A program made the position numbers and the translations under genes. Source: Clostridia bacterium (GTDB lineage: Bacteria > Bacillota > Clostridia > Monoglobales > Monoglobaceae). From it: 64,000 nt of DNA. The notes beneath the pieces were generated by a model, which saw nothing but the letters and a program-made list of their open reading frames with translations, had not been told where the DNA came from and did not search any database. This document shows positions 1 through 56,578 of the stretch, piece after piece; the first letter of the stretch is position 1, and every line of letters starts with the position of its first letter. The DNA lies in assembly GCA_045587485.1 (NCBI GenBank), contig JAZNCI010000080.1, positions 18,336-82,335 of the forward strand. The letters run 5' to 3'.

Positions 1-3000
1 CGAATCTCTGACCGCCGAACTGAGCTTTACCGCCCAGAGGCTGCTGAGTAACAAGTGAGTAAGGACCTGTTGAACGGGCGTGAATTTTATCATCAACCAA
101 GTGAGCAAGTTTAAGCATATGCATATAACCAACTGTTACGCGGTTGTCAAATGGCTCACCTGTACGACCGTCATAAAGTATAGTTTTACCGTCGCGTGAG
201 TAGCCCGCTTGTTCCAAAGCGTCCATAATATCTTCTTCGTTCGCACCGTCAAAAACAGGTGTTGCAACCTTCCATCCAAGTGCTTTTGCTGCATAGCCAA
301 GATGAACTTCAAGTACCTGACCGATGTTCATACGTGAAGGTACGCCCAGAGGGTTGAGAACAATCTGCAACGGTGTTCCATCAGGGAGGAAGGGCATATC
401 TTCTTCGGGAAGAATTCTTGAAATAACACCCTTATTACCATGGCGACCTGCCATTTTATCGCCGACAGAAATTTTTCTCTTCTGTGCGATATAGCAGCGG
501 ACTATCTGGGATACACCGGGAGGAAGCTCGTCGCTGTTTTCACGGGTAAATACTTTAACATCAACAATAATACCATATTCGCCGTGTGGTACACGGAGAG
601 ATGTGTCGCGAACCTCACGTGCTTTTTCTCCAAAAATTGCACGGAGCAGACGTTCTTCGGCTGACAACTCGGTTTCGCCTTTTGGAGTAACCTTACCAAC
701 CAGAATGTCGCCGCTTGAAACCTCGGCACCGATGCGTATAATTCCGCGTTCGTCAAGATCTTTCAATGCGTCTTCACCCACATTTGGAATATCACGGGTA
801 ATTTCTTCAGGACCAAGCTTGGTATCACGTGATTCAATTTCGTATTCTTCGATGTGGATTGATGTGAGAATATCATCCTTAACAAGCTGTTCACTGATAA
901 GCATAGCATCCTCGTAGTTATAGCCTTCCCAAGTCATAAAACCGATAAGGATATTTCTTCCGAGACCGATTTCACCGTTCTTTGTTGAGGGACCATCTGC
1001 AATAATGTCGCCAGCTTCAACCCTTTCACCCTCTGTTACGATAGGTCTTTGGTTGATGCACATACCCTGGTTTGAACGCATAAACTTGATGAGCTTATAG
1101 TTGTCTGAATCACCGTCATCCGTTGCAATCTCGATCTGGCGGGCAGAAACTTTTTTAACAACACCGCTACGCTTTGCAAGGATACAAACGCCGGAGTCTT
1201 TAGCTGTTTTAAATTCCATACCCGTGCCGATAATTGGCGACTCGGGACAGAGAAGGGGAACGGCCTGACGCTGCATGTTAGAACCCATCAGTGCGCGGTT
1301 AGCATCGTCGTTTTCAAGGAAGGGAATCATTGCTGTAGCAATGGATGTTACCTGACGTGGCGAAACATCCATATAGTCAACTTGGCACTTGCCGGGCTCA
1401 GCAGAGATTTCAAGAAATTCATCCCTATATCTTGTAACTACCTTTTTTGCAATAAACTTTCCGTTTTCGTCGAGAGGCTCATTTGCCTGTGCAATATAGT
1501 ATCCGTCCTCAGTGTCGGCTGTCATATATTCAACCACATCGGTTACACAGCCTGTTTCCTTGTCGACCTTGCGGTAGGGGGCTTCAATGAAACCGTATTC
1601 GTTTACCTTTGCAAAGCCTGAAAGCGAGTTGATAAGACCGATGTTGGGACCTTCAGGTGTTTCGATTGGACACATACGTCCGTAATGTGAATGGTGAACG
1701 TCACGAACTTCAAAACCGGCTCTTTCTCTTGAAAGACCACCGGGACCAAGTGCCGAGAGTCTTCTCTTGTGGGTAAGCTCACCAAGGGGGTTGATCTGGT
1801 CCATAAACTGTGAAAGCTGTGATGAACCAAAGAATTCCTTAACTGCTGATGTTACGGGACGAATGTTTATGAGGGTCTGGGGAGTAACAACATCCAAATC
1901 TTGTGTGGACATTCTTTCGCGAACAACTCTTTCCATTCTTGAAAGACCAATTCTGAATTGATTCTGGAGAAGCTCGCCAACGCTGCGAAGACGACGGTTG
2001 CCCAGATGGTCAATATCATCAACGTTGCCTATACCTGCTGCCAGGTTTCCGACGTAAGAAATAGAGGCAAGAATGTCGTCAACAAGAATGTGTTTGGGGA
2101 TAAGTTCGTCACGGCGTTCGCGAAGAGCATTCTTGAATTCGTCGGAGTTGACGTCAGGAAACTCGTCCATAATCTGTTTAAGAACCGAGTAACGAACGTT
2201 TTCATTTATTTCGTAATCTCTTGGGTTGTAGTCAACAAGGTCGCGAAGGTCAACCATACCGTTAGAGATAACATTTGTTGTGTGCTCGTTGTCTACTTTA
2301 ATAACAACTTTATTGATGTTTGCAATTTCAAGGGCATGAGCCATTTCCTTGGTGATTTTTTCACCTGCAGAAACTATAAGCTCGCCGGTTTCCTTGTCAA
2401 CAATGTTTTCAGCCGAAATCTGACCGACAATACGTGCAGCCATACGAAGTTTTTTGTTGAATTTATATCTGCCTACACGGGCAAGGTCATAACGCTTGGG
2501 GTCAAAGAAGAGATTTGTGATAAGAGACTGTGCGCTTTCTACCGTGGGGGGTTCGCCCGGGCGAAGCTTGCGGTAAATCTCAAGCAGACCCTCTTCGACT
2601 GTCTTGGTTGTGTCCTTTTCCATTGTGCGCATAATACGGTCATCTTCGCCGAAAAGTTCGGTAATTTCCGCATCTGTACCAACGCCTAGAGCACGAATAA
2701 GAACAGTAATGGGAGTTTTTCTCATTTTGTCAATCTTAACGTGGAAAAGGTCGTTGCTGTCGGTTTCGTATTCGAGCCAGGCTCCTCGGTTGGGAATAAC
2801 CTGAGATGAAAATAGCTTTTTGCCGATTTTGTCGTATTTCTCAGCGAAATATACACTTGGGGCACGGACAAGCTGGCTGACGATAACACGCTCAGCACCG
2901 TTTATAATAAAGGTACCTGACGGAGTCATAATCGGGAAATCGCCCATAAAGATTTCCTGCTCCTTAACCTCACCGGTTTCCTTATTAATAAGACGAACCT

Positions 3001-3280
3001 TTACTCTGAGTGGCGCCGCATATGTAGCGTCACGCTCTTTACACTCTTCAATGTCATATTTGGGGTTCATATCTATTCTGTAATCAATAAATTCCAGAAT
3101 AAGATTGCCGGTGTAGTCAGTGATAGGTGACACATCGTGGAAGACTTCCTTTAAGCCTTCGCTTAAAAACCAGTCATAAGAATTTTTCTGGATTTCGATA
3201 AGGTTTGGCATTTCAACAACTTCCCTTATCTTACCATAGCTCATTCGGGTGTTTTTGCCAAGTTTCACCGGATGTACCAT
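1..3280 (-). CDS. rpoB: DNA-directed RNA polymerase beta subunit, N-terminal ~1093 codons (3' end lies beyond the window start)
   Basis: It is absent from the ORF track because it is open at the window edge. Read on the reverse strand, it starts [38 protein letters not shown] from the ATG at 3280-3278. Bases ~131-1 read [43 protein letters not shown]. Both are canonical RpoB blocks. Confidence 0.95.
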
Positions 3281-3639
3281 AAAATAATCACCTCTTCGTT
3301 AGATTTGCAGATGGGGCAAAATGTCATCTGCATTGTGTATTAAGCACGTATAGCAACACAATATATTGTAATAATTTTCGTAATATGGTAAAATTTTCAC
3401 AAAAATATTTTAAACAACTATTGCTTTTTTCATACATATGTGATATACTGCAAATACAGTAAAAAATATGGGTGAAATTTAAAAATACGCAAAAGTACGC
3501 ACTATAATAGGTAACTATTATATCACAAGGTTTTGCCTTTGTCAATGTGTTTTTGTAAATTTTGGTGAAAATATTTTTGGATAAGGCATTAAGCTTATTT
3601 ATAGCTTGATGCCTTACGTTTAATGAGAGGGACAAATAT

Positions 3640-14838: not shown

Positions 14839-14919
14839 GCACCGTTACATACTCCATGTTTGCGAGGCAAATTAAACAAGAAACCCCACCTTACGGTGGG
14901 GTTTCGCCTTTTTAAATTG

Positions 14920-15268
14920 TTACGGCAGATCTGTAAGCCGAGTTCTGTCATTTAAGACGGTCATCTATCTAAGCCGGGCATCACTGCCGGGCTTCAGCCA
15001 CCTACCCGAAAGTCGCCGGGCCAGCTTAATCTTTCCTATAAGGTGTTGCTCCAGGTGGGGTTTACAGCACGCTTCCGTCGCCGGAGCGTGGGTGAGCTCT
15101 TACCTCGCCTTTCCACCCTTACCCGAAAAAACGGGCGGTATATTTCTGTTGCACTTTCCTTAAAGTTGCCTTCACAAGGGGTTACCTTGCACCCTGCCCT
15201 GTGGAGCTCGGACTTTCCTCACGCACAGGATTTCTCCTTTGTGCCCGCGACCGTCCAATCTGCCGATG
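14920..15268 (-). ncRNA. rnpB: RNase P RNA, bacterial type A
   Basis: The reverse strand contains GAGGAAAGTCCGAGCTCCACAGGGCAGGGTGC, AGTGCAACAGAAA, GGTAAGAGCTCACC and ACAGAACTCGGCTTACAG. P1 is formed by CGGCAGAT (5') and ATCTGCCG (3'). The ends are approximate to within a few nt. Confidence 0.9.
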
Positions 15269-29954: not shown

Positions 29955-30223
29955 AATATTACCTCCAGATTAATTGCAAAAAACTGCGTTATTCCTTTCT
30001 GTCTCTCCCTTCATAGTAGATTTTTGGTTGTTGCAAATGAGCAACAAAAACATAAATACATACTTAGTATACATTAAAAATGTATTTTTGTCAACCGCAT
30101 TAACAAAATTGTTTCAATTATATTACAATTTAATTACAAAAATCTGGTAAAAGTAAAAATATACGATTAAAGTATTGACAAAAGAAGACTTTTATGTTAT
30201 TTTAGCAGTAATTAAATAAAAAT

Positions 30224-30500
30224 GCGTTGAAGGAGAGTGCCCCAAGGGTAGGCTTTAGAGAGAAACGGCGGTTGGTGCAAGCCGTAAAAGCTGAATTTGT
30301 GAGCTGTAGCTCCCGAGCAGGAAGGAAGAACACCGGATTATTCGGCAAGTAGAACCTTTCCGTGTCTGCTACGTTAGTGCATAGGGTCTGATTTTGGGAC
30401 CTGAAGGGGCGTTATTGTAAAGGATAACGCAATTTGAGTGGTACCGCGGGTAAATTACTCGTCTCAAAGAATTTCAAATCTTTGAGACTTTTTTATTTTC
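30224..30500 (+). promoter_or_regulatory. T-box riboswitch leader (tRNA-sensing transcription attenuator)
   Basis: Stem I elements: K-turn GA motifs, AG bulge AGAGAGA (30257-30263), distal loop GGTTGGTGCAA (30270-30280). There is a stem II/IIA-B-like GGCAAGTAGAAC. The T-box sequence is AATTTGAGTGGTACCGCGGG (30431-30450). The terminator is GTCTCAAAGA...TCTTTGAGAC (30461-30488) plus a T-run. A possible promoter is TTGACA 30175-30180. Confidence 0.85.
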
Positions 30501-30526
30501 TCAAAGATAAATTTGGAGGGAAAAAT

Positions 30527-32809
30527 ATGAATGAAGAAACAATGACAGGTCTTGATTTTAAAATCAGCGAGGTTGCAACCAGAATCAAGGAACTCCGTCA
30601 CATTAGCGGAATTTCAAAAGAAACTATGGCAAAGCTTACGGGCGTATCCCGCGAAGAATATGCTGCCTGCGAAGAAGGCAAGCACGATTTGAGCTTTGCT
30701 TTTATTTATCGATGTGCGCTTGCCTTTAAGGTGGGAGTAACAGATATCATTGAAGGTGTCAGCTCTACCCTTAAATCTCACGTTGTTACAAGGTGCGGGG
30801 AGGGGACAAAGATTGACGAGGCTCACGGAATGACATATTACAATTTGGCATCGGCTTTTAAGGGAAGAGTTTCAGAGCCTTTGTATGTCGAATGTAAGTA
30901 TGACCCTGAGGCAGAGCAAAATGACATTGATCTTGCAACTCATACGGGTCAGGAACTTGACATTGTGCTGAGTGGTGTGCTGAAGGTTCAAATTGGTTCT
31001 CACACCGAAATCCTCCGTCAGGGCGACACAATATATTACGACAGTTCAACTCCTCATGGTATGATTGCCATTGAAGGACAGGACGCTGTGTTTTATGCAA
31101 TCGTTCTCAAGGGGACAGAACTTGAAAAGACTGAAAAATCGGTTCTGAAATCTAATTATAAGCCACACAGAGAATATAAGAGAGTATACCACGACTTTAT
31201 TGATACAGTTGAAGACGAAAACGGTTCACTTGTTTCAATTAGCTTCAAAAACGAGGATAAATTCAATTTTGCCTTTGATGTTGTTGACGAAATAGCACGT
31301 CGCAAGCCTGAGAAACTGGCAATGCTTTATGTTTCAAAGAACCATGAAGAAAAGCGCTTTACATTTACAGACTTTATGAAGGAATCTGCACGTTGCGCAA
31401 ATTATTTTGAGTCTTTGGGTATCAAAAAAGGCGATAAGGTTATGATGGTTCTCAAGCGTCACTATCAGTTCTGGATTGCAACACTTGCACTTCAGAAAAT
31501 TGGCGCAGTTTCAATTCCTGCAAGCTTTTTACTTCAGGAGCACGACTATGAATACCGCTATGAAGCTGCAGGTGTTTCGGCAATTTTGTGTACAGCAGAC
31601 GATGACATTGCTGACCGTGCTGAAGCGGGTTCAAAAAATGCAACAACCCTGAGAGAAAAGATTATTGTGGGTGGTTCAAAGGACGGGTGGCGTAACTTTG
31701 ACGAGGAATATAAGACCTTCCCCGACGTATACGAACGCAAAACGGATTTACCCTGCGGTGATGATGATATGCTTCTTTATTTCACATCAGGAACAACAGG
31801 CAACCCCAAAATGGCTCTTCACAGCTTCAAATATCCTCTGGGACACTTCCACACAGCAAACTACTGGCATTGTGTTGACCCCGAGGGTCTGCACTTGACA
31901 ATTTCGGATACAGGCTGGGCAAAAGCTGCGTGGGGCAAGATTTACGGACAATGGCTTTGCGAGGCAGCACTCTTTGTTTATGATTTTGACAAATTTGATG
32001 CGGCAGATATATTGCCTATGTTTGAGAAATACAAAATTACAACCTTCTGTGCTCCCCCTACGATGTACAGAATGCTGATGAAAGAGGATATTTCAAAATA
32101 CGATATGTCATCTGTCCAGCACGCAACAACTGCCGGTGAAGCCCTGAACCCTGAAGTGTTCAAGCAGATTGAAAAGCTGACAGGTCTCAAGATTATGGAA
32201 GGCTTTGGTCAGACCGAAACCACCTGCCTTATCGGTAATCTCTATGGCAAAGAATACAAAATGGGTGCAATGGGTAAGCCCGTTCCTCTTTATGACGTGG
32301 ACATTGTTGACCCTGATGGCAACAGCGTTGGTGTTGGTGAAAATGGTGAAATCGTTATCAGAACTTCGGAGCGTGTACCGTGCGGGTTGTTCAAAGGCTA
32401 TTACCGCGACGAAGAAAAGACCGCAGAGGTATGGCACGACGGAATTTATCACACAGGCGACGTTGCTTATAAAGACGAAGACGGTTTCTATTTCTATGTA
32501 AGCCGAATTGACGACGTTATCAAGTCTTCGGGCTACCGTATCGGACCTTTCGAGATTGAAAGCGTTATTATGGAGCTGCCCTACGTTGTGGAATGCGGTG
32601 TATCAGCCGCTCCTGATGAAATACGCGGGCAGGTTGTCAAGGCAAGCATTGTTCTTACAAAGGATACTGTTCCCAGCGAAGAGCTAAAAAAGGAAATCCA
32701 GAGCTATGTAAAAGAGCATACTGCACCTTACAAGTATCCAAGAATTGTGGAATTCAGGGACGAGCTCCCAAAGACCACAAGCGGTAAGATAATAAGAGCA
32801 AAACTCTAA
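30527..32809 (+). CDS. Fusion protein: XRE-type HTH + cupin domain + AMP-forming acyl-CoA synthetase (medium-chain ACS-like)
   Basis: ATG 30527 follows GGAGGG. The track start at 30434 lies inside the T-box terminator region. The HTH is ISKETMAKLTGVSREEYAACEEGK. The cupin is ATHTGQELDIVLSGVLKV...TPHGM. Adenylation motifs are FTSGTTGNPKMA, YHTGDVAYKDEDGFYFYVSRIDDVIKSSGYRIGPFEIES and PKTTSGKIIR. Confidence 0.85.
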   Translation: MNEETMTGLDFKISEVATRIKELRHISGISKETMAKLTGVSREEYAACEEGKHDLSFAFIYRCALAFKVGVTDIIEGVSSTLKSHVVTRCGEGTKIDEAHGMTYYNLASAFKGRVSEPLYVECKYDPEAEQNDIDLATHTGQELDIVLSGVLKVQIGSHTEILRQGDTIYYDSSTPHGMIAIEGQDAVFYAIVLKGTELEKTEKSVLKSNYKPHREYKRVYHDFIDTVEDENGSLVSISFKNEDKFNFAFDVVDEIARRKPEKLAMLYVSKNHEEKRFTFTDFMKESARCANYFESLGIKKGDKVMMVLKRHYQFWIATLALQKIGAVSIPASFLLQEHDYEYRYEAAGVSAILCTADDDIADRAEAGSKNATTLREKIIVGGSKDGWRNFDEEYKTFPDVYERKTDLPCGDDDMLLYFTSGTTGNPKMALHSFKYPLGHFHTANYWHCVDPEGLHLTISDTGWAKAAWGKIYGQWLCEAALFVYDFDKFDAADILPMFEKYKITTFCAPPTMYRMLMKEDISKYDMSSVQHATTAGEALNPEVFKQIEKLTGLKIMEGFGQTETTCLIGNLYGKEYKMGAMGKPVPLYDVDIVDPDGNSVGVGENGEIVIRTSERVPCGLFKGYYRDEEKTAEVWHDGIYHTGDVAYKDEDGFYFYVSRIDDVIKSSGYRIGPFEIESVIMELPYVVECGVSAAPDEIRGQVVKASIVLTKDTVPSEELKKEIQSYVKEHTAPYKYPRIVEFRDELPKTTSGKIIRAKL

Positions 32810-32821
32810 TAGTTATATACA

Positions 32822-32855
32822 AAAGCCGGCACAGATTTTTCTGTGCCGGCTTTTG
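32822..32855. terminator. Bidirectional terminator after the acyl-CoA ligase fusion gene
   Basis: AAAAGCCGGCACAG-ATTTTT-CTGTGCCGGCTTTT. Confidence 0.8.
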
Positions 32856-33324: not shown

Positions 33325-34080
33325 TTAAATTTCTATTTCAAGTGATACGGGGCAATGGTCAGAGCCCAAAATATTTGTGTGGATGTCGGCGACTTTGATG
33401 CTGTCCTTAATAGTATCAGATGTCAGAAAATAGTCAATACGCCATCCTGCATTCTTTTCACGGGCTTTAAAACGGTAACTCCACCATGAATAAACATCTG
33501 TTCTGTCGGGATAAAGATAACGAAAGCTGTCACAAAATCCGTTTTCTAACAGCTGGGTCATTTTTTCCCGTTCTTCATCCGTAAAGCCTGCATTACGCCG
33601 GTTGGTTTTTGGGTTTTTAAGGTCAATTTCTTTATGTGCAACATTTAAATCGCCACAAAGAATAACAGGTTTTTTCTTGTCAAGTGAAATAAGATAGTTT
33701 CGAAAGGCATCCTCCCATTCAATACGATAGTCAAGCCGTGCAAGCTCGTTTTGAGAGTTGGGGGTATAGCAGGTGACAAAACAGAATTTATCAAATTCTA
33801 GTGTGATAACCCTGCCCTCGTGGTCGTGTTTGTCGATGCCAATGCCATAACAGACCGAGGTGGGTTTGATGCGCGTAAAAACAGCTGTGCCCGAATAACC
33901 TTTTTTGTCTGCGCTGTTCCAATACTGATAATATCCGTCGGTGAGGACTTCTGCCTGTCCTTGCTGCATTTTGGTCTCCTGCAGAGCAAAAATGTCTGCA
34001 TCGAAATTTTTAAATATATCAACAAAGCCTTTTTCAAGACAGGCACGCAAGCCGTTTACGTTCCAGGAAACAAATTTCAT
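33325..34080 (-). CDS. xth: Exodeoxyribonuclease III
   Basis: MKFVSWNVNGLRA...LQETK...GSDHCPV is the typical ExoIII/AP endonuclease pattern. Confidence 0.92.
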   Translation of the reverse strand: MKFVSWNVNGLRACLEKGFVDIFKNFDADIFALQETKMQQGQAEVLTDGYYQYWNSADKKGYSGTAVFTRIKPTSVCYGIGIDKHDHEGRVITLEFDKFCFVTCYTPNSQNELARLDYRIEWEDAFRNYLISLDKKKPVILCGDLNVAHKEIDLKNPKTNRRNAGFTDEEREKMTQLLENGFCDSFRYLYPDRTDVYSWWSYRFKAREKNAGWRIDYFLTSDTIKDSIKVADIHTNILGSDHCPVSLEIEI

Positions 34081-56242: not shown

Positions 56243-56318
56243 GCTGGTGTAGCTCAATTGGCAGAGCAGCTGATTTGTAATCAGCAGGTTGCGGGTTCGA
56301 GTCCCATCACCAGCTCCA
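56243..56318 (+). tRNA. tRNA-Thr (anticodon TGT)
   Basis: Acceptor GCTGGTG/CACCAGC, anticodon arm GCTGA-TTTGTAA-TCAGC, CCA encoded. Promoter TTGACA-17-TATCAT at 56173-56201. Confidence 0.9.
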
Positions 56319-56325
56319 GTTATTT

Positions 56326-56410
56326 GGAGGGGTTCCCGAGTGGCCAAAGGGGGCAGACTGTAAATCTGTTGCGTCTCGCTTCGATGGTTCGAATCCATCT
56401 CCCTCCACCA
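56326..56410 (+). tRNA. tRNA-Tyr (anticodon GTA), class II with a long variable arm
   Basis: GGAGGGG...CCCTCC acceptor, anticodon loop CTGTAAA, T-loop GGTTCGAATCC, CCA encoded. A terminator lies at 56411-56441. Confidence 0.9.
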
Positions 56411-56578
56411 GAAAAAAGCACTTCTTCGGAAGTGCTTTTTTCAATGAAATTTGTCTTCGGCAAGTGAAATACACTACGTGGATGAAATATTGCTTCGAAA
56501 TATGAAATATGCCTTGCAGCAACGAAATTTATATCATTAGTTCAAGGTAGACACAGATAAATACGTCGCAACAAGCTG

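Follow-up and report, generated by a model that had tools for sequence, protein, structure and literature searches.

A class I T-box leader with a valine specifier in front of a predicted HTH/cupin-acyl-CoA ligase gene, and its possible role in branched-acid salvage by gut Clostridia

Why would a gene for an acyl-coenzyme A (CoA) ligase be placed under the control of tRNA charging, and which tRNA does its leader RNA read? This question is raised by a 64,000-nt stretch of a Clostridia bacterium genome (assembly GCA_045587485.1, contig JAZNCI010000080.1, positions 18,336 to 82,335 of the forward strand), hereafter called the window, in which a T-box leader stands in front of a gene encoding a helix-turn-helix (HTH)/cupin module fused to an AMP-forming acyl-CoA synthetase (Table 1). 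We consider it probable that this leader is a class I tRNA-Val T-box which attenuates transcription of an isobutyrate-CoA ligase, and that the product of the enzyme would reach valine through a 2-oxoisovalerate:ferredoxin oxidoreductase (VOR).

RNA families were searched with cmscan against Rfam 15, in which the T-box family RF00230 has a gathering score of 93. The covariance model matched the leader over its full length (model positions 1-219) with 96.5 bits and an E-value of 6.2e-20. This agrees with a preliminary description of the locus, made from the sequence alone, which had proposed a T-box at 30175-30526; the K-turn, AG bulge, distal loop, T-box sequence and overlapping terminator that it listed were all found where it had placed them. 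For comparative analysis, orthologues were collected by a scan of one genome per species, which gave 80 loci with a full-length fusion gene of 66-97% identity, all of them from metagenome-assembled genomes of gut or rumen Clostridia, Oscillospiraceae or Acutalibacteraceae. In 77 of these 80 loci the orthologous gene is preceded by a T-box leader; the other three (L034, L042 and L062) end about 100 nt or less from the gene start, and L077 holds only the 3′ part of the leader. On these counts, the association of T-box and gene is far beyond chance. Moreover, TTGACA and the extended -10 element of the promoter were seen at equal distance to stem I in essentially all orthologous leaders.

Single-sequence folding did not give the canonical fold for stem I (z = +0.17), in line with the difficulty that the preliminary description had met when folding it by hand. 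The structure of stem I was therefore fixed by comparative data. In 73 leaders the closing helix was paired in 100% of cases, with compensatory changes in two of its four pairs (AU 39 / GC 34 at one pair and GC 68 / AU 5 at another), and the helix between the AG bulge and the distal loop was 98.9% paired, with covariation at all five of its pairs. The C-stem pair of the K-turn was GC in 44 leaders and AU in 26, and the UGA ... GAGC motifs were present. AGAGA in the AG bulge and GGUUGGUG-like distal loops were also conserved across orthologous leaders.

The specifier was read from an alignment of 73 distinct stem I sequences made with MAFFT (alignment A1), in which the triplet GUA (columns G83 T84 A85) was invariant in 73/73 leaders. 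The base 3′ of this triplet was always a purine (G in 66 leaders and A in nine; G30309 in the window), and the next four bases were paired, in 100% of cells, with the four that come after the K-turn; when the partners were slid by 1-3 columns, pairing fell from 96% to 25-53%. The GUA register is that of the codon position in the Rfam consensus alignment. Thus, being invariant, in the correct Rfam register and fixed by the covarying closing helix, GUA was assigned as the specifier, and on this comparative evidence the T-box is one that reads tRNA-Val, which stem I would bind through the anticodon. The same triplet is the specifier of the Val-specific leader of Bacillus subtilis valS. The preliminary description had located both GTA (30306-30308) and GAATTTG (30293-30299) correctly; it preferred UUU (Phe) within the latter and kept GTA as a fallback, and the invariant triplet which it had proposed to look for in orthologous leaders turned out to be the fallback. 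GAA-UUU-G itself was rejected as specifier: it is not conserved, with GAGTTCTG, AAATTCGG and GAAACAGA in orthologues, and lies in the upper helix region, away from the covarying closing helix. In T-boxes in general, the specifier loop often, though not universally, contains an S-turn, with AGUA in its 5′ and GAA in its 3′ strand. Here the 5′ side of the loop is AGUG/AGGG/AGUA-like, and all structural T-box features that were examined were present except the S-turn consensus. Apart from a slightly reduced specifier loop, this RNA is an ordinary member of the class I T-boxes.

Downstream of stem III, the segment 30428-30470 folds exactly into helix A1, a 7-nt bulge and helix A2 of an antiterminator, with a free energy of -9.7 kcal/mol. 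AGTGGTACCGCGG was identical in all 75 parsed leaders, and AGUGGUACCGCGG of the antiterminator likewise showed no variation in these leaders (75/75). The UGGU of the bulge, unchanged in 75 leaders, would be complementary to an A73-CCA end, as expected for tRNA-Val, but does not discriminate it from tRNA-Ile or tRNA-Phe. The competing terminator (30455-30500 folded) reached -13.7 kcal/mol with z = -5.38, and none of 200 shuffled sequences folded equally well. As CUCAAA at 30463-30468 is common to the terminator and to the 3′ strand of antiterminator helix A1, the two structures are mutually exclusive. A TTG start codon at 30434 was considered for the open reading frame (ORF) and rejected, since it lies inside the T-box and the true start is the ATG at 30527 with its GGAGG ribosome-binding site. 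A strong terminator lies behind the gene, and the downstream neighbour, an exonuclease III-like ORF (33325-34080), is encoded by the other strand. Hence the transcription unit is monocistronic, and the Pfam domains together with the closing terminator bear out the preliminary description's account of an HTH-cupin-acyl-CoA ligase fusion as the only downstream gene. In one orthologous locus (L016, about 2960-3320), an insertion of some 270 nt separates the T-box terminator from the ligase start codon.

Table 1. Features of the T-box unit in the window, and the array found in sister-clade loci
Feature	Position	Strand	Details and basis
Sigma-70-type promoter of leader	30175..30203	+	TTGACA, 17 nt, TG-n-TATTTT; consensus scan, 10/12 matches, extended TG
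T-box leader RNA	30218..30469	+	Full RF00230 match
Stem I	30224..30318	+	73-leader alignment A1, pair counts
K-turn of stem I	within 30224..30318	+	GCG-UUGA / GAGC
Stem I closing helix	30232-30235 with 30310-30313	+	GGAG with CUCC; covariation
AG bulge	30257-30263	+	AGAGAGA; sequence
Distal loop	30270-30280	+	GGTTGGTGCAA; sequence
Specifier	30306..30308	+	GUA (valine codon; would pair with anticodon UAC); invariant in aligned leaders
Stem II	30320-30326 with 30355-30361	+	GGAAGGA with CCUUUCC; Rfam model alignment only
Stem II and stem IIA/B region together	30320..30376	+	IIA/B region ends ACGUUA; Rfam model alignment only
Stem III	30409..30430	+	GCGUUAU ... AUAACGC; Rfam model alignment and sequence
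T-box sequence	30431-30450	+	AATTTGAGTGGTACCGCGGG; sequence
T-box sequence and antiterminator	30431..30468	+	RNA fold
Antiterminator helix A1	30433-30438 with 30463-30468	+	UUUGAG with CUCAAA; RNA fold
Antiterminator 7-nt bulge	30439-30445	+	UGGUACC; RNA fold
Antiterminator helix A2	30446-30462	+	RNA fold
Intrinsic terminator	30461..30494	+	Hairpin 30461-30488, then T-run; 10-bp stem, 8-nt loop; terminator scan and fold
Ribosome-binding site	30515..30519	+	GGAGG, 7 nt before ATG; read from sequence
Regulated gene	30527..32809	+	760 aa, ATG start; HTH/cupin module fused to AMP-forming acyl-CoA synthetase
Protein domains	aa 16-78; 124-192; 196-230; 243-760		HTH-like domain; cupin; disordered linker; ligase
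Strong intrinsic terminator behind gene	32820..32855	+	16-bp stem, 9 GC pairs
Array in 33 sister-clade loci	L046 1077-9539; L038-L080		Two T-box/ligase units and a VOR part (order given in text)

Which acid does the ligase activate? Pfam assigned HTH_19 (aa 19-78), Cupin_2 (136-192), AMP-binding (254-626) and AMP-binding_C (676-754) to the fusion protein, with 221.6 bits for PF00501 and 76.6 bits for PF13193 in the ligase part, where conservation of the protein is also highest. The best NCBIfam match was MbcS (NF047394) with 441.5 bits, and the best match in the PDB was 3ETC, the MacsMa enzyme of Methanosarcina acetivorans (E = 1.2e-178; aa 243-759 against 52-572, about 50% identity over 521 columns, i.e. 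over the whole ligase domain). MacsMa, likewise an AMP-forming enzyme, prefers 2-methylbutyrate (PMC10455477), and MbcS of Staphylococcus aureus takes acids from the environment and selectively activates 2-methylbutyrate and isobutyrate (PMC10026030). Since these two are the nearest characterised relatives, the ligase was placed in the short alpha-branched-acid branch of the superfamily. In addition, W447 of the window protein retains a Trp that aligns with chain position 260 of 3ETC, close to Trp259 of MacsMa, which is critical for its substrate (PMC10455477). The two relatives differ from the window protein in that MacsMa is without the N-terminal HTH/cupin module, and that for MbcS, which serves the priming of fatty acids, neither a T-box nor an HTH/cupin fusion has been reported. 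From these sequence relationships and the valine specifier, the regulated enzyme is most likely an isobutyrate-CoA ligase.

A second HTH-cupin-ligase paralogue was found among the loci, and its leaders carry the specifier AUC (Ile) in 34 of 34 cases, in the same register as GUA; 30 of these leaders were read individually and all 34 were labelled by script. In a midpoint-rooted neighbour-joining tree of 117 ligase proteins, the split between the GUA clade (77 labelled proteins, with that of the window) and the AUC clade (34) was exact. Only two columns of the ligase domain separate the Val and Ile clades. At the first, window residue A465, Ala was found in 77/77 proteins of the Val clade and Gly in 34/34 of the Ile clade; at the second, window residue G570, the Val clade has Gly in 100% and the Ile clade has Ala in 94% of proteins. 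At these two columns MacsMa, unlike the window protein, agrees with the Ile clade (G278 and A383). A465 stands directly after the GW of the motif SDTGW-AK, a position that may correspond to that of the pocket residues Val310/Thr311 of acetyl-CoA synthetase. The clade split and the Ala/Gly swap at 465 and 570 point, indirectly, to isobutyrate or 2-methylbutyrate as the preferred acyl substrate.

The two paralogues meet in a conserved array, found in 33 loci of a sister clade of 66-68% identity. Its order is an Ile(AUC) T-box, an HTH-cupin-ligase gene, a Val(GUA) T-box and the HTH-cupin-ligase gene orthologous to that of the window, behind which, with gaps of at most 45 nt, stand a CbiA/ParA-like P-loop gene and then the genes of a 2-oxoacid:ferredoxin oxidoreductase, first a small delta subunit (73 aa, 2x[4Fe-4S]) and after it alpha, beta and gamma. 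The P-loop protein has 220 aa and no NCBIfam match, and the alpha subunit scored 534 bits on NCBIfam VorB, a 3-methyl-2-oxobutanoate dehydrogenase subunit, with a cut-off of 399.

By eye, the Ile paralogue leaders also were without the S-turn GAA, which suggests that both leader types arose by duplication of a single atypical ancestor. A third T-box of the same loci has this GAA, in a canonical GAA-CUC-A (Leu) specifier loop; it was found between the Val-leader and Ile-leader paralogues (L081 9525-14525; also L035 and L082-L084). The three genes behind it encode a divergent LeuA-like protein that falls far short of the equivalog cut-offs, an AP_endonuc_2::AMP-binding fusion of 819 aa from another, PRK12583-like ligase subfamily, and an Amidohydro_2 protein. 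This group may be a leucine-related counterpart.

Based on these observations, the following course of events is proposed. Transcription would begin at the promoter 30175-30203, the specifier GUA in stem I would pair with the anticodon of tRNA-Val, and the platform of AG bulge and distal loop would hold the tRNA elbow. If the tRNA-Val were uncharged, its free NCCA end would pair with UGGU of the 7-nt bulge and stabilise the antiterminator, and RNA polymerase would then pass the terminator into the single downstream gene. The gene product would make isobutyryl-CoA, which a VorB-type 2-oxoacid:ferredoxin oxidoreductase would reductively carboxylate to 2-oxoisovalerate, to be transaminated to valine. 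Valine starvation would in this way turn on the salvage of gut or rumen isobutyrate, and the Ile-leader paralogue would serve the same route from 2-methylbutyrate to isoleucine. AMP-forming ligases work in the activating direction, and switching one on when valine runs short would be sensible only in a synthetic route; flux is expected to run that way.

Such a route is known from physiology: formation of valine from isobutyrate and of isoleucine from 2-methylbutyrate in rumen anaerobes is attributed to Allison & Peel 1971 and Robinson & Allison 1969, respectively, as cited in PMC7356843. An acid-activating enzyme and a 2-oxoisovalerate:ferredoxin oxidoreductase are what the reductive carboxylation route of Allison and co-workers (1960s-1971) predicts, as is the separate handling of isobutyrate (Val) and 2-methylbutyrate (Ile), and they are the set found in the sister clade. 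Whereas the classical work was physiological, genes or control by tRNA charging for this route were not found in the searchable literature. The preliminary description had likewise suggested that an exogenous acid is activated to its CoA ester and then reductively carboxylated, with either phenylacetate or a branched-chain acid as substrate; the branched-chain version is supported by the homology to MbcS and MacsMa, the 33 VOR loci and the Ile paralogue, and the phenylacetate version falls with the valine specifier.

Several observations weigh against the proposed valine route. The score on RF00230 clears the gathering score by only 3.5 bits, and, where other T-box leaders may have it, the 3′-side S-turn GAA is absent 5′ of the specifier in 73/73 leaders (GCU, UUU and others stand instead); the missing GAA probably explains the modest Rfam score. 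No tRNA-Val gene was found within the 64-kb window. The ligase missed the MbcS equivalog cut-off of 850 and is thus a relative, not an equivalog. A VOR gene or an Ile paralogue was found neither in the 64-kb window nor, within 4-kb flanks, in the relatives of at least 79% identity; as the window and the close clade show no adjacent VOR, the pathway link is transferred from the sister clade. In that clade, VOR stands behind the Val leader only, which leaves carboxylation of the Ile-leader product without a linked enzyme. Finally, the proposed route does not account for the conserved HTH/cupin module.

Of the other explanations, the one that survives best accepts the sensing of tRNA-Val and supposes that isobutyryl-CoA primes iso-even branched-chain fatty acids, so that valine shortage would induce isobutyrate salvage for lipids with no resynthesis of valine. 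The documented role of MbcS, the best curated family for the ligase, is indeed the priming of branched-chain fatty acids (PMC10026030; PMC11167679), and the missing VOR neighbour in the window and its close clade fits lipid synthesis. However, the 33 sister-clade loci are contiguous with a VorB-type operon, which fits carboxylation to a 2-oxo acid, and T-boxes monitor tRNA charging, that is, amino acid supply for translation. We therefore regard lipid synthesis as the sole purpose as unlikely, and the two uses may coexist, as isobutyryl-CoA could feed both.

The N-terminal module gives rise to another explanation, in which the protein is mainly a BirA-like transcription factor: the ligase and cupin would sense an acid or adenylate, the HTH would control other genes for branched-chain amino acids, with the T-box doing no more than adjusting the amount of this regulator. 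The HTH_19/XRE match and the sequence similarity of the N-terminus to the V. cholerae HTH_3 regulator 1y9q speak for a regulator, and both paralogue clades retain the module, in which 38 positions are invariant among 38 sequences. However, the HTH_19 match is marginal (30.9 against a cut-off of 30.2), and structural comparison did not single out a regulator. A model of the N-terminal 195 aa was built with AlphaFold2 (AF2) from database homologues and reached a medium predicted local distance difference test score (pLDDT 68.5, better within domains); in Foldseek it matched 1y9q and the iron enzyme HppE with its relatives equally (E about 3e-11), which is indicative only. The matches HppE, HEPD and MPnS are enzymes with an HTH-like domain that does not bind DNA and a metal-binding cupin. 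Identities in these matches were 18-22%, and the TM-scores of 0.3 reflect a different domain orientation or model uncertainty. The window module shares the combination of HTH-like domain and cupin with HppE-type and 1y9q-type proteins and differs from both in its fusion to a ligase.

The cupin residues H139, E143 and H177 are invariant in both paralogue clades (window 30527-31111, aa 1-195), which also argues against a mere regulator; they presumably resemble the 2-His-1-Glu iron site of HppE, and the pattern hints at a possible metal site of the 2-His-1-carboxylate type in these strict anaerobes. A search of the region upstream of the promoters showed no operator common to the clades, the promoter itself being the only shared element, and the strongest conservation lies in the ligase domain and not in the HTH. 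Taken together, these points make a protein acting mainly as transcription factor improbable, somewhat more so than exclusive use in lipid synthesis. As modelled, the N-terminal module could regulate by binding DNA, act as a metal-dependent sensor or have a structural role.

That UUU is the specifier of a tRNA-Phe sensor, with an enzyme that activates phenylacetate for phenylalanine synthesis, can practically be dismissed: GAA-UUU-G does exist and resembles the canonical GAA-NNN-purine context, but the heptamer is neither conserved nor next to the closing helix, the Rfam alignment puts the codon at the invariant GUA, and the nearest characterised enzymes take short alpha-branched acids, not aryl acids.

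The preferred explanation, tRNA-Val control of an isobutyrate-CoA ligase that serves valine synthesis, can be extended to a bolder proposal, which we hold only tentatively and think more doubtful than true. GUA and AUC T-boxes, the paralogous HTH/cupin-ligases and the VOR operon would together be the long-missing genes, and the regulation, by which rumen and gut Oscillospirales turn branched-chain volatile fatty acids into branched-chain amino acids, the Gly/Ala swap would set the substrate, and the HTH-cupin module would perhaps be a second, protein-level sensor, either a BirA-like regulator or a metal-dependent feedback module. Such a gene set would explain the 60-year-old need of many fibre-degrading rumen and gut anaerobes for isobutyrate and 2-methylbutyrate, and ligases with an adjacent VOR operon form a concrete set by which an old physiological pathway becomes genetically testable. 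Branched-acid salvage would then be wired to tRNA charging.

How does this leader compare with known T-box systems? The class I K-turn, specifier loop, platform of AG bulge and distal loop, stems II, IIA/B and III, the UGGN bulge in the antiterminator and the competing terminator are all shared with other RF00230 leaders, and no new regulatory mechanism is revealed. The target, in contrast, is an acid-activating enzyme with an HTH/cupin module and not an aminoacyl-tRNA synthetase, a de novo biosynthesis enzyme or a transporter, as the preliminary description had noticed and as Pfam and NCBIfam assignments confirm. The T-box surveys of RegPrecise and Wels list aminoacyl-tRNA synthetase, biosynthesis and transport genes; no acyl-CoA ligase or VOR target was present in the RegPrecise T-box regulon tables or in Wels 2008, a comparison outside which Vitreschak 2008 lies. 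In the searchable literature, nothing relevant linked a T-box to acyl-CoA synthetase, CoA ligase, isobutyrate or reductive carboxylation. Thus the regulatory mechanism appears ordinary and the target class undescribed, and enzymes for the activation of precursor acids would join the aminoacyl-tRNA synthetase, de novo biosynthesis and transport genes of the known T-box regulon.

The specifiers moreover can be used as built-in functional labels, by which one paralogue would serve valine and the other isoleucine. They annotate a large and uncharacterised family of fusion proteins, which carry only the database names 'AMP-binding protein' or 'cupin domain-containing protein'; in a one-genome-per-species collection, at least 526 of the candidate matches were confirmed as relatives. 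Ala465/Gly570 against Gly/Ala is a natural pair in which specificity of short-chain acyl-CoA ligases could be studied or engineered.

Upstream of the leader promoter, a block at 30088-30135 with TTAACAAAATTGTTTCAA..TTACAA..ATTACAAAAA is conserved in L003, L004 and L006-L008, while the sequence between it and the -35 element varies among the closest relatives. This block scores as a second promoter (TTAACA-18-TACAAT at 30100-30129), and alternatively it could be a protein-binding site. Two further RNAs were found elsewhere in the window. A bacterial RNase P class A RNA at 14918-15266 on the minus strand matched its full model length with 284 bits and is an ordinary housekeeping gene, and a Gut-1 RNA (RF01706, 53.7 bits) lies at 56442-56513 on the plus strand, directly after a tRNA-Thr(UGU)/tRNA-Tyr pair at 56243-56410.

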